A stretch of DNA of 44,791 nucleotides from an uncultured Candidatus Saccharibacteria bacterium. GTDB lineage: Bacteria > Patescibacteriota > Dojkabacteria > J137. Every line of letters begins with the position of its first letter. Positions within the stretch are counted from its first letter, which is position 1. Below the pieces are notes generated by a model, which was not told the DNA's origin, ran no database searches, and saw nothing but the letters and a program-made list of their open reading frames with translations. Below are positions 18,385 through 44,053 of the stretch, piece after piece. The stretch covers positions 1 through 44,791 of the forward strand of contig CAYUKX010000002.1 in the NCBI GenBank assembly GCA_964445405.1, written 5' to 3'. Made by a program: the position numbers and the translations under genes.

Positions 18385-18396
18385 TATTTAAGGTTT

Positions 18397-18413
18397 GGGG
18401 GCATTCTGCCCCC
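18397..18413. terminator. GC-rich hairpin between convergent rubrerythrin and island-1 ORF
   Basis: GGGGGCA-ttc-TGCCCCC lies 13 nt after the rubrerythrin stop and 6 nt before the minus-strand ORF stop. Confidence 0.65.
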
Positions 18414-18418
18414 ACCTA

Positions 18419-18685
18419 CTAATCTCGAGCGTCCCATTTTTGCCGTGCCCGCTCATTGGCTTTACGGACTGCGTTGTCCGCAATCATGAGGGGGCGGATC
18501 ATCAGCCACAATGCTGCGGCCCACCCATCAAACACTAAAAGGGTCAACTCGACACTTCCCCCTACAAAATTGTTTACAATCACGTAGGGGCCCATTGTAA
18601 GTAGCATTAGTTGTGGCAGGCTCGCGTAGAACCAACCTAGCACCACAGCTAATACGATCAAGAGCTTTACAGTTCTGCCAAGCAT
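18419..18685 (-). CDS. Small (88 aa) two-helix membrane protein encoded in G+C-rich island 1
   Basis: AGGAG sits 5 nt upstream of the ATG. Hydrophobic segments are KLLIVLAVVLGWFYASLPQLMLL and VELTLLVFDGWAAALWLMIRPLMI, with a charged tail. Codon usage (GCG, CGC, CTG, CCC) is unlike the neighbours. Confidence 0.55.
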   Translation of the reverse strand: MLGRTVKLLIVLAVVLGWFYASLPQLMLLTMGPYVIVNNFVGGSVELTLLVFDGWAAALWLMIRPLMIADNAVRKANERARQKWDARD

Positions 18686-34333: not shown

Positions 34334-36232
34334 TTAAGCTAATCCCATTTCTCGTTTAGCTACATCGTTTAGATTCTTTCTCTTGGACCAATCTCTTTGT
34401 GTTTTAGTTAAGAATTGTTTTCTTAGTCTTAAACTTTCTGGTGTTACTTCTAGTAATTCATCGTCGTTTAAGAATAGTAGAGCATATTCTAGTGTAATTT
34501 CTTTAATTGCTTTTAAAGAAGTTTGTGTAATTTCATCGTGCTTCATTCTAACTGCAGATTTTTGTCTTTCCTTAATTGGATTAACTTCTAAGTCTTGATC
34601 GAATTTATTTAAACCTAAAATCATACCTTCGTAAACTTTAGTACCAGGACCAACAAATAAGTCACCTCTTTCTTGTACTGTGTTTAATGAATAACCCATT
34701 GCAACACCATTTTCCATGGAAATTAACACACCTCTTCTATAGTTTGGCTCCATTTTCTGTACTGGAACATAATCTATTAAGTAGTTATTCATTACAATAT
34801 TTCCTTTTGTTTGGGTTAAAAGAGTGTTTCTTAAGCCTAATAGTTTTCTTGTAAGGATTTTGTAAGTGAACTTTACTTGTCCATTTTCCATTTCCATATC
34901 AACTAATTCAGCTTTTCTTTCACTTAAAGCAGACTGAACAGTTCCCTGGAATTCTGAAGGAACATCGATTGTTACTTCTTCTAGTGGTTCCATTTTTTGT
35001 CCATCTTTTTCAATAAAAATTACTTCTGGTTTTCTAATTTGAAATTCGTAACCTTCTCTTCGCATTGTCTCGATTAAAATAGCCAATTGAAGTTCTCCTC
35101 TTCCAGCAACGTAGTAACTACCTGCGTCTCCTTTTGTAATCTTTAAAGAGATATTAATTTCTGCTTCTTTTTCGATTCTTGATTGTAATTGTTTAGCTGT
35201 AACAAATTTGCCTTCTTTACCCATGAATGGAGAGGTATTTGCTTCGAATTTAATTTGAACAGATGGATTTGTAATTTTTATAGATGGTAAGCTTTCTACA
35301 TGGTTAGCAATGCATAATGTTCCACCAATCGCTGTAGATTCAACACCTGAAATTGCAACAATTTCGCCAGCGGAAGCACTTCTAATGTCTTCGTAAGCTA
35401 AGCCTTCTTTTACTTTTAAGCTCTTAACTCTTCCTGTGTCTTTGCCTGCATCAGCTGCATCACTGTGTAGAATCACTATTTGATCATCAATGTTTACTGT
35501 ACCTCTTTTGATTTTACCTACTAGTAATCTACCTAAATGAGCATCGTAGTCTAAACTTGTAACCAACATCTGTAACGGTTGGGTTTCGTCACCCTTAGGT
35601 GAAGGAATATAGTCTAAAATTGCATCTAAAATTGGAGCCATATCGCCGTCAATTGAATTTGCAACTGTTAAATCGCCTTCTGGTAATTGTTTAAATACTT
35701 TACCTTCTCTTCCGATTGCGTAAAATACAGGAAATTCTAATTGGCTATCATCTGTTGCTAAAAGTAAGAATAAATCTTGAACTTTATCTAGGACTTTTTG
35801 AGGATTTGAGAACTTCTTGTCAATTTTATTAATAATTAACATTGGCTTTAAACCCATTTCTAAAGCTTTTTTCAGTACAAATTTAGTTTGGGGTTTTGGT
35901 CCTTCTTGAGCATCCACTAATAAAATACAACCATCAGCCATATTTAGTGTTCTTTCAACTTCTCCTCCAAAATCGGCATGGCCTGGTGTATCAATAATGT
36001 TAATTTTATGACCTTTGTATCTTATAGAAATGTTTTTAGCTTTAATTGTAATACCTTTTTCTCTTTCTAAATCTCCTGAGTCTAAGATCATTTCTTGAGC
36101 CATTTCGTCTTGGTTATCTCTAAAAACATGAGTTTGTTTTAGAAATGCGTCTACTAGGGTAGTTTTACCGTGGTCAACATGTGCAATTATTGCTATGTTT
36201 CTTATCTTTGATTGTTCAGGCTTGGTATACAT
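34334..36232 (-). CDS. typA: Translational GTPase TypA/BipA
   Basis: IRNIAIIAHVDHGKTTLVD, DTPGHADFGGEVER and NKID are present, with EF-G-like domains throughout. I prefer the start at Met16 (MYTKPEQSKIRN); the tracked ORF extends to a TTG at 36277. Confidence 0.93.
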   Translation of the reverse strand: MYTKPEQSKIRNIAIIAHVDHGKTTLVDAFLKQTHVFRDNQDEMAQEMILDSGDLEREKGITIKAKNISIRYKGHKINIIDTPGHADFGGEVERTLNMADGCILLVDAQEGPKPQTKFVLKKALEMGLKPMLIINKIDKKFSNPQKVLDKVQDLFLLLATDDSQLEFPVFYAIGREGKVFKQLPEGDLTVANSIDGDMAPILDAILDYIPSPKGDETQPLQMLVTSLDYDAHLGRLLVGKIKRGTVNIDDQIVILHSDAADAGKDTGRVKSLKVKEGLAYEDIRSASAGEIVAISGVESTAIGGTLCIANHVESLPSIKITNPSVQIKFEANTSPFMGKEGKFVTAKQLQSRIEKEAEINISLKITKGDAGSYYVAGRGELQLAILIETMRREGYEFQIRKPEVIFIEKDGQKMEPLEEVTIDVPSEFQGTVQSALSERKAELVDMEMENGQVKFTYKILTRKLLGLRNTLLTQTKGNIVMNNYLIDYVPVQKMEPNYRRGVLISMENGVAMGYSLNTVQERGDLFVGPGTKVYEGMILGLNKFDQDLEVNPIKERQKSAVRMKHDEITQTSLKAIKEITLEYALLFLNDDELLEVTPESLRLRKQFLTKTQRDWSKRKNLNDVAKREMGLA

Positions 36233-36332
36233 AAAACTGTGTTTAAAAATGACTTGGAATTTTACCACAAAAAGCAAGTAATTTCTAATGTAGATAATTA
36301 AATTAGGTGATTAGTCAGTTGAACACTACGTG

Positions 36333-36361
36333 TTGAGAATTATATACTAATAATATATAAT
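36333..36361 (+). promoter_or_regulatory. Sigma-70-like promoter for island-2 ORF
   Basis: TTGAGA, a 17-nt spacer and TATAAT (perfect -10) lie ~27 nt upstream of the ATG. Confidence 0.5.
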
Positions 36362-36387
36362 CCAGTGTGCATATACGGAGGTGTTGG

Positions 36388-36807
36388 ATGAAAACCCGAG
36401 CTTTTAATTTGGTGGTTGCGGCAATTGCTGTTGACTTGCTACTAATATTAGTCGTAGTGGCAACGTCACCTTTGGTGAGTTCGGGCAGTTCGGACTGCGA
36501 TGTAGTGCGTCAGGCGGGGCCAATGATTTGGTCTCGCAACCTGGACGGGTTGACAGGACTGTTGGATGGTCAGGATGTCGACCATCTGCGCTCGGTCGCA
36601 CCTGATTGTGGATATCCGCAGTCGATGTGGCTTAGTACGCCGACTTACGGTCCGACGCCCACATTCAGCTGGAATTGCAGTGCCGAATCTGAGAGGATTA
36701 CGCGGAATCAGAGAAATCCGCGGGAGCTCGGCACAGCAGTCCGCAGGCTAAACCAATGTCGCGCGCAGCTCGCGGCGACTGCTACGGCAACATACCGTAG
36801 CCCCTAA
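36388..36807 (+). CDS. Small (139 aa) signal-anchored, 4-Cys protein encoded in G+C-rich island 2
   Basis: GGAGG at 36377-36381 lies 6 nt before ATG 36388. The N-terminal helix is FNLVVAAIAVDLLLILVVVATSPLV. A hairpin terminator follows directly. Coding status is uncertain because G+C-rich DNA yields spurious ORFs. Confidence 0.45.
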   Translation: MKTRAFNLVVAAIAVDLLLILVVVATSPLVSSGSSDCDVVRQAGPMIWSRNLDGLTGLLDGQDVDHLRSVAPDCGYPQSMWLSTPTYGPTPTFSWNCSAESERITRNQRNPRELGTAVRRLNQCRAQLAATATATYRSP

Positions 36808-36814
36808 CGTGCAA

Positions 36815-36837
36815 AGCGCCACCCAAAAGGTGGCGCT
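36815..36837. terminator. GC-rich hairpin after island-2 ORF
   Basis: AGCGCCACC-caaaa-GGTGGCGCT starts 8 nt after the stop codon. Confidence 0.7.
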
Positions 36838-36873
36838 AAAGTTTCTACTATATATTGTCAATCTTGAATCCTT

Positions 36874-37428
36874 CTATTTTATATATCTTGAAATATCTCT
36901 TTGGTGCTCTGGGTGCTTTTTTATATAAGCTAACGATACTGGATCTAAATAGTATCTGTTGTGTGCGACTTCTTCTTGAACCATTTTTGCAAAATATGCT
37001 ACAACAAAGGAGATTGTAATAAACGTGGTATCGTTTGCAAAAACTGTTTGAGATATTATGTATAAAGGAAAGAAGAACTCTAATAGATTTGGATAATATA
37101 TTAAATATTTTGAGTTTTTAGTCACTTCAAAAAATATACTGCCAATAATTCTTAGAACAAAATAAGCTACAAATAACCATAATAATTGGTAGTTTGTATA
37201 CCATACTGCAAGCACCATGTAGAAAACAAATAATAGATCTAGTACTTTATCTATCATCTGATAGGTTATATATCTAGCACCACTTCTGAGCGCGAACGAA
37301 TAATCAAAGGCATCTAAAACAAAAGTTATAAGCCATGCTAATAATGGTTGAGTTAAAAAAAGTGGGAAAATAAAAATTCGTATAAGTATTATTACTGAGT
37401 AAGCAAGTTTAAAGAACAATTTATACAT
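36874..37428 (-). CDS. Polytopic membrane protein, unknown function
   Basis: The 184-aa protein has about 5 hydrophobic helices and native AT-rich composition. It shows only a weak DxxD....DxxxD resemblance (LDAFDYSFALR..IDKVLD) to CDP-alcohol phosphatidyltransferases, which is not enough for a call. Confidence 0.55.
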   Translation of the reverse strand: MYKLFFKLAYSVIILIRIFIFPLFLTQPLLAWLITFVLDAFDYSFALRSGARYITYQMIDKVLDLLFVFYMVLAVWYTNYQLLWLFVAYFVLRIIGSIFFEVTKNSKYLIYYPNLLEFFFPLYIISQTVFANDTTFITISFVVAYFAKMVQEEVAHNRYYLDPVSLAYIKKHPEHQRDISRYIK

Positions 37429-37511
37429 ATATTTATTAGATTTGCTAATTAATTGTATATACTTTAGGTAAATCCAGCAGAGAAGTCAAATACAAGGAAA
37501 ACAGGTGAATA

Positions 37512-37540
37512 TTGACAAAAGTATATATTGGATATATACT
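37512..37540 (+). promoter_or_regulatory. Near-consensus sigma-70-like promoter for island-3 ORF
   Basis: TTGACA (perfect -35), a 17-nt spacer and TATACT lie ~40 nt upstream of the GTG start. Confidence 0.55.
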
Positions 37541-37579
37541 ATATATGTATTTAACAATCGAATTGATGGGGGTGTCAAG

Positions 37580-37912
37580 GTGTTGAAGTCATGGTATTTG
37601 CTGGGGTTGCTCACGTTCCTGGTTTCAGGAGCGATTGCCTCGGTTAATCCGCAGGCAGCGGCTATTTGGAGCGGTTTCGTGAGCATTCTCGCAATTTCTG
37701 CGGGATTAGGGTTTTCCTTAGGGGTAACCATCGTTTTTGCTGTGGCAAAGGGGATCGCCAATGGGTTTACTTTGTTTTTTAACCCGTTCGCGCGGATCGA
37801 CAACCGTGAAACGGACGAAAAAGTCCGTTACATCAACGTAGTCAACATCCTCTGCCTGTGCGCGCTTCTTTGCGTGCATGGGTACATCATCATTGCCGTC
37901 GCGCTCAAGTAG
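37580..37912 (+). CDS. Small (110 aa) membrane/secreted protein encoded in G+C-rich island 3
   Basis: GGGGG at 37568-37572 lies 7 nt before an in-frame GTG at 37580. A signal-like N-terminus (SWYLLGLLTFLVSGAIASVNPQAAA) is followed by two further hydrophobic segments. A strong terminator follows. The tracked ORF start at 37505 lies inside the promoter. Confidence 0.5.
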   Translation: MLKSWYLLGLLTFLVSGAIASVNPQAAAIWSGFVSILAISAGLGFSLGVTIVFAVAKGIANGFTLFFNPFARIDNRETDEKVRYINVVNILCLCALLCVHGYIIIAVALK

Positions 37913-37926
37913 CGTACGGCAAATAC

Positions 37927-37959
37927 AAAAAGGGCGGAATCTTCGGAAACCGCCCTTTT
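37927..37959 (+). terminator. Intrinsic terminator after island-3 ORF
   Basis: AAAAAGGGCGG ... CCGCCCTTTT has an inner TC/GA pair closing a TTCG loop and is followed by a T-run. Confidence 0.8.
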
Positions 37960-38047
37960 GCAGGTCTATTCGACAAACTCCATTTTTTTGCTTGCTCAAA
38001 ATCAACTTTCAAATTATTATATTCTAACTATTTCAAAGTAAATTTTT

Positions 38048-38503
38048 ATGGAAAACAAATCAATTGTAGCAGCGTTAATTGTAATAGTATTTTTAGTAGG
38101 TATATTATTTTTTACAAGCAAACCAGTGGAAAATTCACGAACACAAACAGCAACAGATACTCAATCTAATGCACAACTAACAGAATTAAAAAAGGAAACC
38201 CTAAAAGAGGGAACAGGTGACAGACAAGTTCAAACAGGTGATTTAATAAGCGTACATTACGTAGGTACACTGTTAAATGGTACAAAGTTTGATAGTTCAA
38301 GAGATAGAGGAACACCTTTTGAATTTACAGTAGGTAGCGGAGTCATTGAAGGTTGGAGTGAAGGTGTTGTAGGCATGAAGCAAGGCGAAACAATTAAACT
38401 TTCTATTCCTGCGGAATTAGGTTACGGTGCTCAGGCCGTTGGTTCTATTCCTGCAAATTCAGATCTATACTTTGAAATTGAATTAATGGAATTCAAAAAC
38501 TAA
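38048..38503 (+). CDS. Membrane-anchored FKBP-type peptidyl-prolyl cis-trans isomerase
   Basis: An N-terminal TM is followed by VHYVGTLLNGTKFDSSRDRGTPFEFTVGSGVIEGWSEGVVGMKQGE..IPAELGYG. Confidence 0.92.
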   Translation: MENKSIVAALIVIVFLVGILFFTSKPVENSRTQTATDTQSNAQLTELKKETLKEGTGDRQVQTGDLISVHYVGTLLNGTKFDSSRDRGTPFEFTVGSGVIEGWSEGVVGMKQGETIKLSIPAELGYGAQAVGSIPANSDLYFEIELMEFKN

Positions 38504-38521
38504 AATTTTTTAACGAAATTT

Positions 38522-38547
38522 AAGAGCACCACCAGGTGCTCTTTTTT
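38522..38547 (+). terminator. Intrinsic terminator after FKBP gene
   Basis: AAGAGCACC-acca-GGTGCTCTT is followed by TTTT. Confidence 0.8.
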
Positions 38548-38643
38548 GTTTACTACAAATTCATAATGCAGTAGTAATGTTGTATAGAATTGTAGAAATC
38601 TTTGTGATATTGTAAATAGATTAGCACTTTTAACCACTATTAA

Positions 38644-39258
38644 ATGGATGGGAATCCTTTCTTTGAAAAACCTGCATCTAAGCCACAAAATTGGTTTATT
38701 ATCATATTACAAACGCTTGTAATATTCACTTCTATAGGGATTATTATGTACCTTTTTGTAATATCACCTAACGAAGTTGACGGTCCATCAATGGAGCCAA
38801 ATTTTTACACTCATCAAATATATTTTGCGAATAGAGTAGTTCAGTGGCTAAATGGTACAGAGTTTGGTAAGGTCACAGGCTTTCAATATCAAAGAGGAGA
38901 CGTTGTTGTTTTACAAATTCCTAACTATCCATCTTTTATAAAAAGAATAGTTGCATTGCCAGGCGACAAGATCGCAATTCGCGATGGGAATGTATATATA
39001 AATGATAAGCAAATTTCTGAAGACTATTTGCCACCTGCATTGTATACTAAAGGCGGTGATTTTTTAGAAGACGGTGGTGAATCCCAAATTGTACCGCCTG
39101 GAGCAGTATTTGTTATGGGTGATAACAGAGCAGTTAGCTACGATTCAAGGTATTTAGGCTTTATTCGTAATGACTGGCTAAAAGGAAAAGTCTTCTTAAG
39201 AGTCTTTCCACTAGATGTATTTGGCCTAATTCCTACGGGAACAATAAATTACAATTGA
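38644..39258 (+). CDS. lepB: Signal peptidase I, paralog 1
   Basis: VDGPSMEPNF (catalytic Ser), IKRIVALPGD (Lys box) and GDNRAVSYDSRYLGFI are present. Confidence 0.92.
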   Translation: MDGNPFFEKPASKPQNWFIIILQTLVIFTSIGIIMYLFVISPNEVDGPSMEPNFYTHQIYFANRVVQWLNGTEFGKVTGFQYQRGDVVVLQIPNYPSFIKRIVALPGDKIAIRDGNVYINDKQISEDYLPPALYTKGGDFLEDGGESQIVPPGAVFVMGDNRAVSYDSRYLGFIRNDWLKGKVFLRVFPLDVFGLIPTGTINYN

Positions 39259-39923
39259 AAATGAAGAATCCATTTAAAAGAAATAACACTGAAACTAATT
39301 TCAGTGAAAAAAAAGAGAAGTCCGTCTTAATAGATTTTTTACAATCTGTTACTCTTGCAATTATTTTTTCGTTTATTATATTCAGCATAATTACTCCTAG
39401 CGAAGTAGATGGACCATCAATGGAACCAACCTTCTATAATACCGAAAGAGTTTACACAAACAGATTACCACAATGGTTTAGCACCACAGATATTGGTAAA
39501 GCTTTAGGTTTAGGCTATAACAGAGGTGATGTAATTGTCTTTTTTAAGCCAACAATGGGTAGTTCATTAATTAAAAGAATAGTGGGGTTACCGGGTGACA
39601 CAATTAAAATCGAAGAAGGTAAAGTATATGTAAACGGTCAATTAATTGTGGAAAATTATTTACCTGAAGACATTTATACAAAGCCTGGCAATTTAAGAGA
39701 AGGTCAGGAATATAAGGTACAACTTGAAGAAACAGATACGAATGGCAACCAGATTATTGATCAAGATGTATTTTTTGTAATGGGGGACAATCGAGCTGTA
39801 AGCAACGATTCAAGATACATTGGCTTTGTTAAAAGAGAGTGGATGCAAGGTAAAGTTATTTTTAGACTTTGGCCTTTAAATAAATTCGGAATAATTAATC
39901 CTGGTGACTACGAGTTAAAGTAA
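39255..39923 (+). CDS. lepB: Signal peptidase I, paralog 2
   Basis: VDGPSMEPTF, IKRIVGLPGD and GDNRAVSNDSRYIGFV are present. It has a 4-nt overlap with paralog 1. Confidence 0.92.
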   Translation: MKMKNPFKRNNTETNFSEKKEKSVLIDFLQSVTLAIIFSFIIFSIITPSEVDGPSMEPTFYNTERVYTNRLPQWFSTTDIGKALGLGYNRGDVIVFFKPTMGSSLIKRIVGLPGDTIKIEEGKVYVNGQLIVENYLPEDIYTKPGNLREGQEYKVQLEETDTNGNQIIDQDVFFVMGDNRAVSNDSRYIGFVKREWMQGKVIFRLWPLNKFGIINPGDYELK

Positions 39924-43600: not shown

Positions 43601-44053
43601 ATGTTACCTAAAAAGAAAAGAAAGTTTGCCCTCAAAAGTTTTGCCATTGTAAGTGCTATTAGTTTATTTGTTGTTGCAGTATCTTTAGCTACTGGCATAT
43701 TAAGAATAGATATTGTTGCTTCTTCTGTATCAAAAGAAATTCCTGCTAATTATCAAAAACTTGAAGGTAATATTATGGATAAAATCCAAAACGGAAAAAA
43801 CTTTATATTCTTTACATCGAGCTGGTGTGGCCCTTGTCAAACAATGTCTAATATCTATAAATTATCTGCAGAAAAATATTCTGATATAAATTTTTACGAA
43901 GCAGACATAGAGGTAAATAGAGAATTAGCAAATAGTGTATCTGCTGCAAATGCTCCTGTAGTTTTGTTTATGCAAGATGGTAAAGTAATTGGCAATACCG
44001 AAGTAAACTTAAACGAAATTGAAAAGACAGTAGATAAATACGCATCACTTTAG
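43601..44053 (+). CDS. Membrane-anchored thioredoxin-like protein
   Basis: An N-terminal TM is followed by the WCGPCQ active site. Confidence 0.85.
   Translation: MLPKKKRKFALKSFAIVSAISLFVVAVSLATGILRIDIVASSVSKEIPANYQKLEGNIMDKIQNGKNFIFFTSSWCGPCQTMSNIYKLSAEKYSDINFYEADIEVNRELANSVSAANAPVVLFMQDGKVIGNTEVNLNEIEKTVDKYASL

Follow-up and report, generated by a model that had tools for sequence, protein, structure and literature searches.

What does a sharply bounded G+C-rich island encode in an AT-rich genome of the Dojkabacteria (Patescibacteria): a non-coding RNA (ncRNA), a piece of foreign DNA, or a protein gene of the lineage itself? The question is raised by positions 36,333 to 36,837 of contig CAYUKX010000002.1, within a stretch of 44.8 kb that was analysed as a whole and is called “the window” below. 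An ncRNA or foreign DNA would be expected at such an island. Here it appears to be neither: the island very likely holds a real gene for an exported protein that belongs to a lineage-restricted family, with no recent capture from a high-G+C host. All coordinates refer to the window unless another locus is named, the window copy is used as the reference, and the family gene is abbreviated X.

The open reading frame (ORF) of the window copy has 55.2% G+C against a window mean of 32.8% (standard deviation 4.0 in 420-nt windows; z = 5.6), and is the top G+C peak among all 420-nt windows across the 44.8 kb. Thirty-six of the 60 nucleotides on the line 36541-36600 are G or C, and G+C drops sharply at both island edges (to 0.30 before 36350 and 0.22 after 36850). 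The first-pass annotation, made from the letters of the window, had proposed this G+C content, a promoter, a GGAGG, a 139-residue ORF and a hairpin, and each of them lies exactly where it had been placed:

36333..36361, + strand: sigma-70-type promoter TTGAGA-17-TATAAT, 11 of 12 consensus positions, function predicted from sequence
36377..36381, + strand: Shine-Dalgarno sequence GGAGG, 6 nt before the ATG at 36388
36388..36807, + strand: coding sequence for 139 amino acids, stop codon included in the coordinates, G+C of 0.56/0.54/0.56 at codon positions 1/2/3
36388..36465, + strand: predicted N-terminal export signal (residues 1-26), a positive MKTR start, then a hydrophobic stretch about 20 residues long
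36496..36759, + strand: core of the predicted extracytoplasmic four-cysteine domain, bounded by invariant cysteine codons
36496-98, 36607-09, 36676-78 and 36757-59, + strand: codons of the cysteines C37, C74, C97 and C124, respectively
36815..36837, + strand: hairpin AGCGCCACC-caaaa-GGTGGCGCT, 9-bp stem (7 G-C pairs), 8 nt past the stop codon

The promoter ties for the best promoter-like site in a scan of 2.2 kb (36000-38200), and the transcript start predicted from it (around 36368) would leave a 5' untranslated region (UTR) of about 20 nt. Its sequence, TTGAGAA...TATAAT, recurs in two orthologous loci, L077 and L001, while L078, L004 and L072 have a -10 element at the matching position, so that this element is kept in all six aligned loci; the same six carry GGAGGTG, GAGGTG or AGGAGT at the matching position. 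A hairpin follows the stop codon in every ortholog, with stem sequences that differ between orthologs. In the window the hairpin has a strong stem, conserved in position, and a tail (AAAGUUUCUAC) with a weak U-tract, and in L004 and L073 a short A-rich spacer separates it from a run of five Ts. The hairpins of the window and L001 remain 94% identical over 34 nt, though their coding sequences can no longer be aligned as DNA (blastn). This element is a probable terminator or 3'-end stabiliser. The island is thus predicted to be a monocistronic, self-contained and independently transcribed protein gene (promoter, 5' UTR, GGAGG, ORF and 3' hairpin), and the unit put forward at the outset stands, its -10 element, Shine-Dalgarno sequence and hairpin being conserved in position among orthologs.

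A G+C-rich island between the genes of an AT-rich genome is usually interpreted as a structured ncRNA, or as a dual-function RNA with an incidental ORF. Early hints pointed in that direction: a sharply bounded island with a promoter and a terminal hairpin, a very stable transcript fold (z = -4.5 for the + strand and -3.9 for the - strand against dinucleotide shuffles), no codon-position periodicity in the G+C of the window copy, and a single-sequence protein search which at first gave only a near-identical copy. Conservation, however, was found at the protein level. Nine homologous sequences contain no stop codons and keep four cysteines and further positions invariant, and the ratio of nonsynonymous to synonymous divergence (dN/dS, Nei-Gojobori) was 0.10 for the pair L004/L073 and 0.12 for L075/L076. 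In distant ortholog pairs the proportion of synonymous differences (pS) was at least 0.77, that is, synonymous sites are saturated. Homologs were recovered in frame by tblastn where blastn of the island, run against 70 related loci, matched nothing but the hairpin. In a codon-based alignment the orthologs are just 41-54% identical in nucleotides, and neither consensus RNA structure nor covariation was detected there (alifold z = -0.7, with column shuffles as the reference), so that a conserved RNA element is not proposed.

The Rfam search that the first-pass annotation had suggested returned 0 matches at the gathering threshold in the whole window; in E-value mode only sub-threshold noise was obtained between 36200 and 38100, the best overlap with the island being the hairpin alone (Ysr49, 24.8 bits vs. 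a threshold of 95). No tRNA or tmRNA was found by a scan of the window, and the Shine-Dalgarno sequence is strong, correctly spaced and conserved. Because conservation acts on the protein, dN/dS is low and no consensus RNA structure exists, the island is read as a protein-coding gene under purifying selection, neither an ncRNA nor a chance ORF. The predicted reading frame has held up in its homologs; a pure ncRNA is already refuted by this protein-level conservation, and a structured or dual-function RNA with an incidental ORF is highly improbable.

X is a small, previously unannotated family of about 10 distinct members, found only in Dojkabacteria. Homolog searches covered about 15 billion proteins in total. 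A single-sequence search of 5.8 billion of them returned just one copy, 99% identical, from a contig of 855 nt, and the family surfaced only via synteny, when the typA loci of species-representative genomes were collected and G+C was profiled upstream of typA; the word-indexed single-sequence search had missed the homologs, and synteny-guided comparison alone revealed them. Islands rich in G+C were located at the corresponding place in L001, L003 and L004, and the translations of those in L001 and L004 were clear homologs of the window protein (38-41% identity over the full length, four invariant cysteines). A profile search then gave 7 members, and an exhaustive HMMER search of 1.84 billion representatives also gave 7, three of them new (P0008-P0010). 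Two further HMMER hits, P0011 and P0012, were rejected as spurious, being repetitive sequences, one of them with eukaryotic-looking zinc-finger arrays. All relatives lie on Dojkabacteria-type contigs of 31-36% GC, and none was found outside such contigs among the ~15 billion proteins; no homolog was detected in viral contigs (profile search), in phage and plasmid records (tblastn) or in metagenome contigs of the Joint Genome Institute (profile search). Neither this family nor small G+C-rich genes of Dojkabacteria turned up in the literature search.

The TypA protein of the window is 84-90% identical to TypA of Candidatus Dojkabacteria and Patescibacteria assemblies. The L001 contig (JACSRR010000189.1) was deposited under an Ignavibacteriaceae metagenome-assembled genome; it is probably mis-binned, because its TypA is 89% identical to that of the window and its gene order is that of Dojkabacteria.

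X is syntenic in most genomes, in a slot framed by two genes:

34334..36232, - strand: typA/bipA, divergent from X, left anchor of the typA|X|FKBP slot
38048..38503, + strand: gene for a membrane-anchored FKBP-type peptidyl-prolyl isomerase, right anchor of the slot, with two signal peptidase I genes after it

This slot is common to the window, L001, L004, L072-74, L077 and L078, and a second slot, after the dihydroorotate dehydrogenase gene (DHOdh|X), is used in L075, L076 and L079. In an independent assembly from the European Nucleotide Archive (L071), the island and the AT-rich sequence on either side of it are present and 99.5% identical. A chimeric assembly, or high-G+C contamination joined to an AT-rich contig, would account for the abrupt switch of composition at both edges, but not for L071, nor for orthologs in eight other assemblies, in the first or the second conserved slot, nor for an AT-rich promoter and a Shine-Dalgarno sequence that run unbroken into the ORF; its probability is practically nil. 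The segment recurs in independent assemblies, L001, L004, L077 and L078 holding it in the same position.

Capture from a high-G+C host, for example an actinobacterium, had been offered as a speculative origin in the first-pass annotation. In its recent form this would leave donor composition incompletely drifted, and it has some points in its favor: composition is atypical at all codon positions, codon usage is non-native (arginine as CGN vs. the native AGA), promoter, gene and hairpin form a self-contained unit, and presence among close relatives is patchy (L002 lacks the gene). The first two of these, atypical base composition and codon usage, are also marks of a genomic island; mobility signatures and composition-matched donor homologs, which are marks of the same kind, were not found. 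Against capture stand the lack of any homolog outside AT-rich Dojkabacteria-type contigs among the ~15 billion proteins and in the viral, phage and plasmid collections, and a promoter and Shine-Dalgarno sequence that are of native type and conserved. The same-slot orthologs all have 47-55% G+C despite saturated synonymous sites, which a recent acquisition in the course of drifting would not show. Nor is there an integrase gene, a tRNA gene or a flanking repeat: that no integrase or repeat was visible had been noted from the start, and this proved correct, since the neighbors include no integrase or transposase and a search for flanking repeats gave only short, low-identity repeats at chance level. 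With relatives confined to contigs of 31-36% GC, syntenic inheritance and saturated synonymous sites, the host-capture proposal is not supported, and recent capture is regarded as very unlikely.

The patchy presence has another explanation. The promoter, start codon and signal segment have been lost in L073 and L074 (5' truncation), and in L072 an internal deletion that preserves the frame has removed the C-terminal half. L002, whose TypA is 89% identical, has no X at all; it keeps a TTGAGA...TATATA promoter-like stub and about 35 nt of G+C-richer sequence:

3840-3960 of L002, - strand view: remnant between typA and the FKBP gene, with the promoter-like stub

This resembles a deletion and is consistent with loss, not with primary absence, which also counts against capture. 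As X is truncated, internally deleted or lost in L072-74 and L002, it is judged from these loci to be accessory and dispensable.

The product has the features of a Sec-exported protein, namely a positive n-region and a single h-region near the N-terminus. The hydrophobic segment covers residues 8-26 in the window copy (19-residue Kyte-Doolittle mean of 2.96). A single N-terminal hydrophobic segment and no second one were found in all seven full-length members tested (Kyte-Doolittle 2.3-3.2), in each case with a net charge of +1 to +4 ahead of it. Candidate signal peptidase I sites were recognized by eye (VVA|TS in the window, VQS|FQS in L004), and the export signal may be cleaved off as a signal peptide or stay in place as a signal anchor; both an anchored and a cleaved form would be compatible with it. 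The four cysteines (37, 74, 97 and 124) agree with the signal-anchored cysteine protein foreseen in the first-pass annotation. They are spaced approximately C-x36-C-x22-C-x26-C in members from the typA slot, with a shorter first gap in members from the DHOdh slot, and the two pairs are separated by a Pro/Thr-rich linker (TPTYGPTPTF). G44, W48, D53, L67, R68, C74, G75, T90, T92, S94, C97, C124 and a C-terminal proline are invariant in the nine-sequence alignment, and C37 is kept in all full-length members. Members range from 125 to 167 amino acids; lysine is nearly absent (0.7-2.4% vs. 7.1% in native proteins), and arginine, alanine and proline are enriched.

An AlphaFold2 model built from the nine-sequence alignment is helical, with a mean predicted local distance difference test score (pLDDT) of 70 and a predicted template modelling score (pTM) of 0.41. 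Foldseek of this model against the PDB gave no match (best E-value 1.6), a PDB sequence search gave no assignment (best E-value 0.66), and searches of Pfam, NCBIfam, PHROGs and PADLOC returned nothing below E = 0.005 and no family common to more than one member. X is therefore best described as a new, very narrowly distributed protein family, apparently outside any described protein or RNA family. On these features, the positive N-terminus and single hydrophobic segment would direct the protein to the Sec pathway, leaving a mostly helical domain of about 100 residues outside the membrane, anchored or released, in which the four invariant cysteines would probably form two disulfides, one on either side of the Pro/Thr linker; the expected pairs are C37-C74 and C97-C124. 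The product is probably a disulfide-bonded cell-surface or secreted factor. An anti-sigma-factor was also considered and dropped, the cytoplasmic N-terminus being just 3-16 residues long.

Three observations sit less comfortably with an exported-protein gene. The window copy lacks the codon-position G+C periodicity of a usual coding sequence (0.56/0.54/0.56), although other members do show it (for example 0.58/0.45/0.53 in L001); no terminator was called at the window hairpin by a consensus terminator scan, the tail having no proper U-tract; and the AlphaFold2 model is of moderate confidence and matched no known fold, so that function is read from anatomy.

X evolves much faster than its neighbors. 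Between genomes whose TypA proteins are 84-90% identical, X is only 34-50% identical: 50% between the window and L077 (TypA 88%, FKBP 89%, LepB 91%), and 34% between the window and L078 (77-90% for the neighbors). In close pairs both dN and dS were raised, with dS of X about 2 to 16 times that of the flanking genes (0.95 vs. 0.51 for typA in L004/L073; 0.66 vs. 0.04-0.21 for flanking genes in L075/L076). In the latter pair about 120 nt (L075 6045-6165) are only ~55% identical inside flanks of 95-100% identity. This tract is the 5' part of X, with the membrane segment and DCLVIEQLG, the gene's first conserved motif; the hydrophobic segment varies freely, and the motif is kept wholly by synonymous differences. 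The pair is thus read as a recombination mosaic that arose by import of a long-diverged allele, and its raised dS would follow from this mosaic. A diversity-generating retroelement target was rejected for the tract, as the differences are not adenine-specific and consist of wholesale synonymous replacement, which points to allele import. Accessory, fast-evolving, recombining and exported, X would behave in the manner typical of exposed proteins under diversifying pressure, and an exposed surface or secreted factor that comes into contact with a host, competitor or phage would fit this behavior. Patescibacteria are thought to live attached to other cells, and exported four-cysteine proteins that evolve fast, recombine and are dispensable are candidates for partner or phage interaction.

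X is not the only small G+C-rich gene of the lineage. Three others were recorded:

37512-37961, + strand: island 3 cassette, promoter TTGACA-17-TATACT at 37512-37540, GTG start at 37580 after GGGGGT
18395-18685, - strand: island 1, ORF at 18419-18685, 88 amino acids with a membrane segment, 51% G+C, G+C at third codon positions (GC3) of 0.56
3519-3839 of L003, - strand: ORF of 106 amino acids in the typA-FKBP slot, 53% G+C, very hydrophobic, unrelated to X

The ORF of island 3 (37580-37912; 51% G+C, GC3 0.64) encodes a 110-residue product with multiple membrane segments and is followed by a hairpin and T-run at 37928-37961. Its ortholog in L077 is 72% identical with the same promoter, and only two other relatives were found among 5.8 billion proteins. 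The dS of island 3 with respect to L077 (0.65) is below that of the flanking genes (1.3-1.6), which suggests synonymous-site constraint or recent exchange. Island 1 had no family match; a hairpin, GGGGGCA-ttc-TGCCCCC, lies at about 18396-18415, between island 1 and a convergent rubrerythrin-like gene. The typA-FKBP slot appears to collect G+C-rich small membrane-protein genes.

Why, then, is X rich in G+C? The gene has 47-55% G+C in all members examined, against 31-36% for their contigs, and GC3 is 0.42-0.56 in the family, where native codon usage would predict about 0.22. The amino-acid make-up of the products lifts G+C from 32% to no more than about 41%; the remainder is synonymous codon choice, with arginine mostly as CGN where native genes use AGA. 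Synonymous sites are saturated and a passively acquired composition would have decayed, so G+C-richness is taken, from these comparisons, to be a long-maintained trait of the family, kept at synonymous sites against the AT bias of the genome. Strongly non-native codon usage and excess mRNA folding despite saturated synonymous divergence make up a compositional puzzle worth follow-up.

The excess folding was measured against synonymous-codon shuffles, which keep both the protein sequence and codon usage. Seven members gave z values of -3.0, -2.1, -0.6, -6.1, -3.3, -1.3 and -2.1, vs. a mean of -0.44 (standard deviation 1.05) for 40 native genes in the same test (Mann-Whitney p = 7e-4 for the family; 1e-4 for all G+C-rich genes pooled). 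The other G+C-rich genes gave -3.4 and -3.0 (island 3), -3.6 (island 1) and -0.1 (the L003 ORF). Selection for a stably folded mRNA may accordingly lie behind the G+C-richness, an explanation held tentatively and at slightly under an even chance; judging from the excess folding energy, such an mRNA may be long-lived or slowly translated. Three points tell against it: two of the seven members (L001 and L075) are not individually significant, the members are related and the Mann-Whitney test overstates their independence, and in the absence of a consensus RNA structure (alifold z = -0.7) the idea draws on general foldedness.

The competing explanation is that GC-biased gene conversion at a recombination hotspot, or repeated allele import, maintains the G+C, the gene itself being the same secreted-protein gene. 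The L075/L076 mosaic (~120 nt at ~55% identity in flanks of 95-100%) and the dS of X in close pairs (~2 to 16 times that of flanking genes) are what a recombining locus would give; G+C is raised about equally at all codon positions of the window copy, as expected from a coding-blind process; and further small G+C-rich genes occupy the typA-FKBP slot (island 3 both in the window and in L077, the 106-aa ORF in L003). A conversion tract would however be expected to spill over, and the enrichment ends at the gene edges, with an AT-rich promoter and an AT-rich downstream spacer; folding beyond synonymous-codon shuffles is not predicted by conversion alone; and the effect size (GC3 of about 0.5 vs. 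0.2) is far above what is known of bacterial biased gene conversion, which also counts against it. Conversion or repeated import as the sole cause is considered fairly unlikely. What maintains the G+C is probably mRNA selection, biased conversion or the two together, and mRNA selection is favored over conversion because the enrichment stops at the gene edges and conversion predicts no excess folding.

A broader proposal, that the lineage keeps a class of small exported or membrane-protein genes (X, islands 1 and 3, the L003 ORF) at ~50-55% G+C in a ~33% genome, with non-native codon usage and excess mRNA folding upheld for long enough to saturate synonymous sites, and with a composition that is selected and functional and does not betray foreign origin, is doubtful. 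If true, the transcripts might be nuclease-resistant, long-lived mRNAs, or might be deliberately translated slowly for export, and G+C-rich islands in AT-rich reduced genomes should not be taken by default as evidence of horizontal transfer or of ncRNA.

Two further features of the neighborhood bear on X:

36874-37428, - strand: ORF of 184 amino acids with multiple membrane segments, AT-rich, no Pfam match
43601-44053, + strand: membrane-anchored thioredoxin (N-terminal anchor, CGPC motif), further downstream in the maturation cluster

The island had been described as wedged between typA and a native membrane-protein gene. The typA side of this description is right; the 184-aa gene on the other side is not a conserved “native” gene, as it was found only in the window strain and the near-identical L071 among the fetched loci. 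In L001 and L077, X runs directly to the FKBP gene or to island 3, and because the 184-aa ORF is absent from both it is interpreted as an accessory insertion itself. Beyond it lies an export/folding cluster, the FKBP isomerase and two tandem signal peptidase I genes (38048-39923, + strand), which is conserved in related genomes; the position of X at its head is suggestive of a functional link.

Four known systems can be compared with X. Islands of high G+C in AT-rich genomes underlie GC-content-based ncRNA discovery, and X shares with such ncRNA islands the sharp bounds, the promoter, the terminal hairpin and strongly negative folding z-scores; unlike them, it is conserved as a protein and has no Rfam match and no consensus structure.

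Horizontally acquired islets and phage “moron” cassettes are, like X, autonomous units of promoter, ORF and terminator with atypical composition, placed between housekeeping genes and variably present among relatives. X differs from them in lacking a surrounding prophage or mobile element, an integrase gene and repeats (searches of PHROGs and of phage, plasmid and viral collections were empty), in being syntenic over long spans with an undrifted composition, and in that no donor lineage was found.

The extracytoplasmic protein-maturation neighborhood (FKBP isomerase, two signal peptidases I and the CGPC thioredoxin) is headed by X in most genomes, and the product, with its export signal, prolines and paired cysteines, is built as a substrate of these enzymes would be. 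Co-location is the sole link, however; L002 lost X but kept the cluster, and three genomes hold X elsewhere.

Finally, small secreted cysteine-rich proteins of symbionts and pathogens have been described mainly in eukaryotic filamentous pathogens. They form a functional class, not a set of homologs of X: X comes from Patescibacteria, has no sequence or fold similarity to a characterised member, and resembles them by class features alone. These features are nonetheless numerous, as both are short, carry an export signal and an even number of conserved cysteines, are lineage-restricted, fast-evolving and variably present, and show allelic mosaicism.

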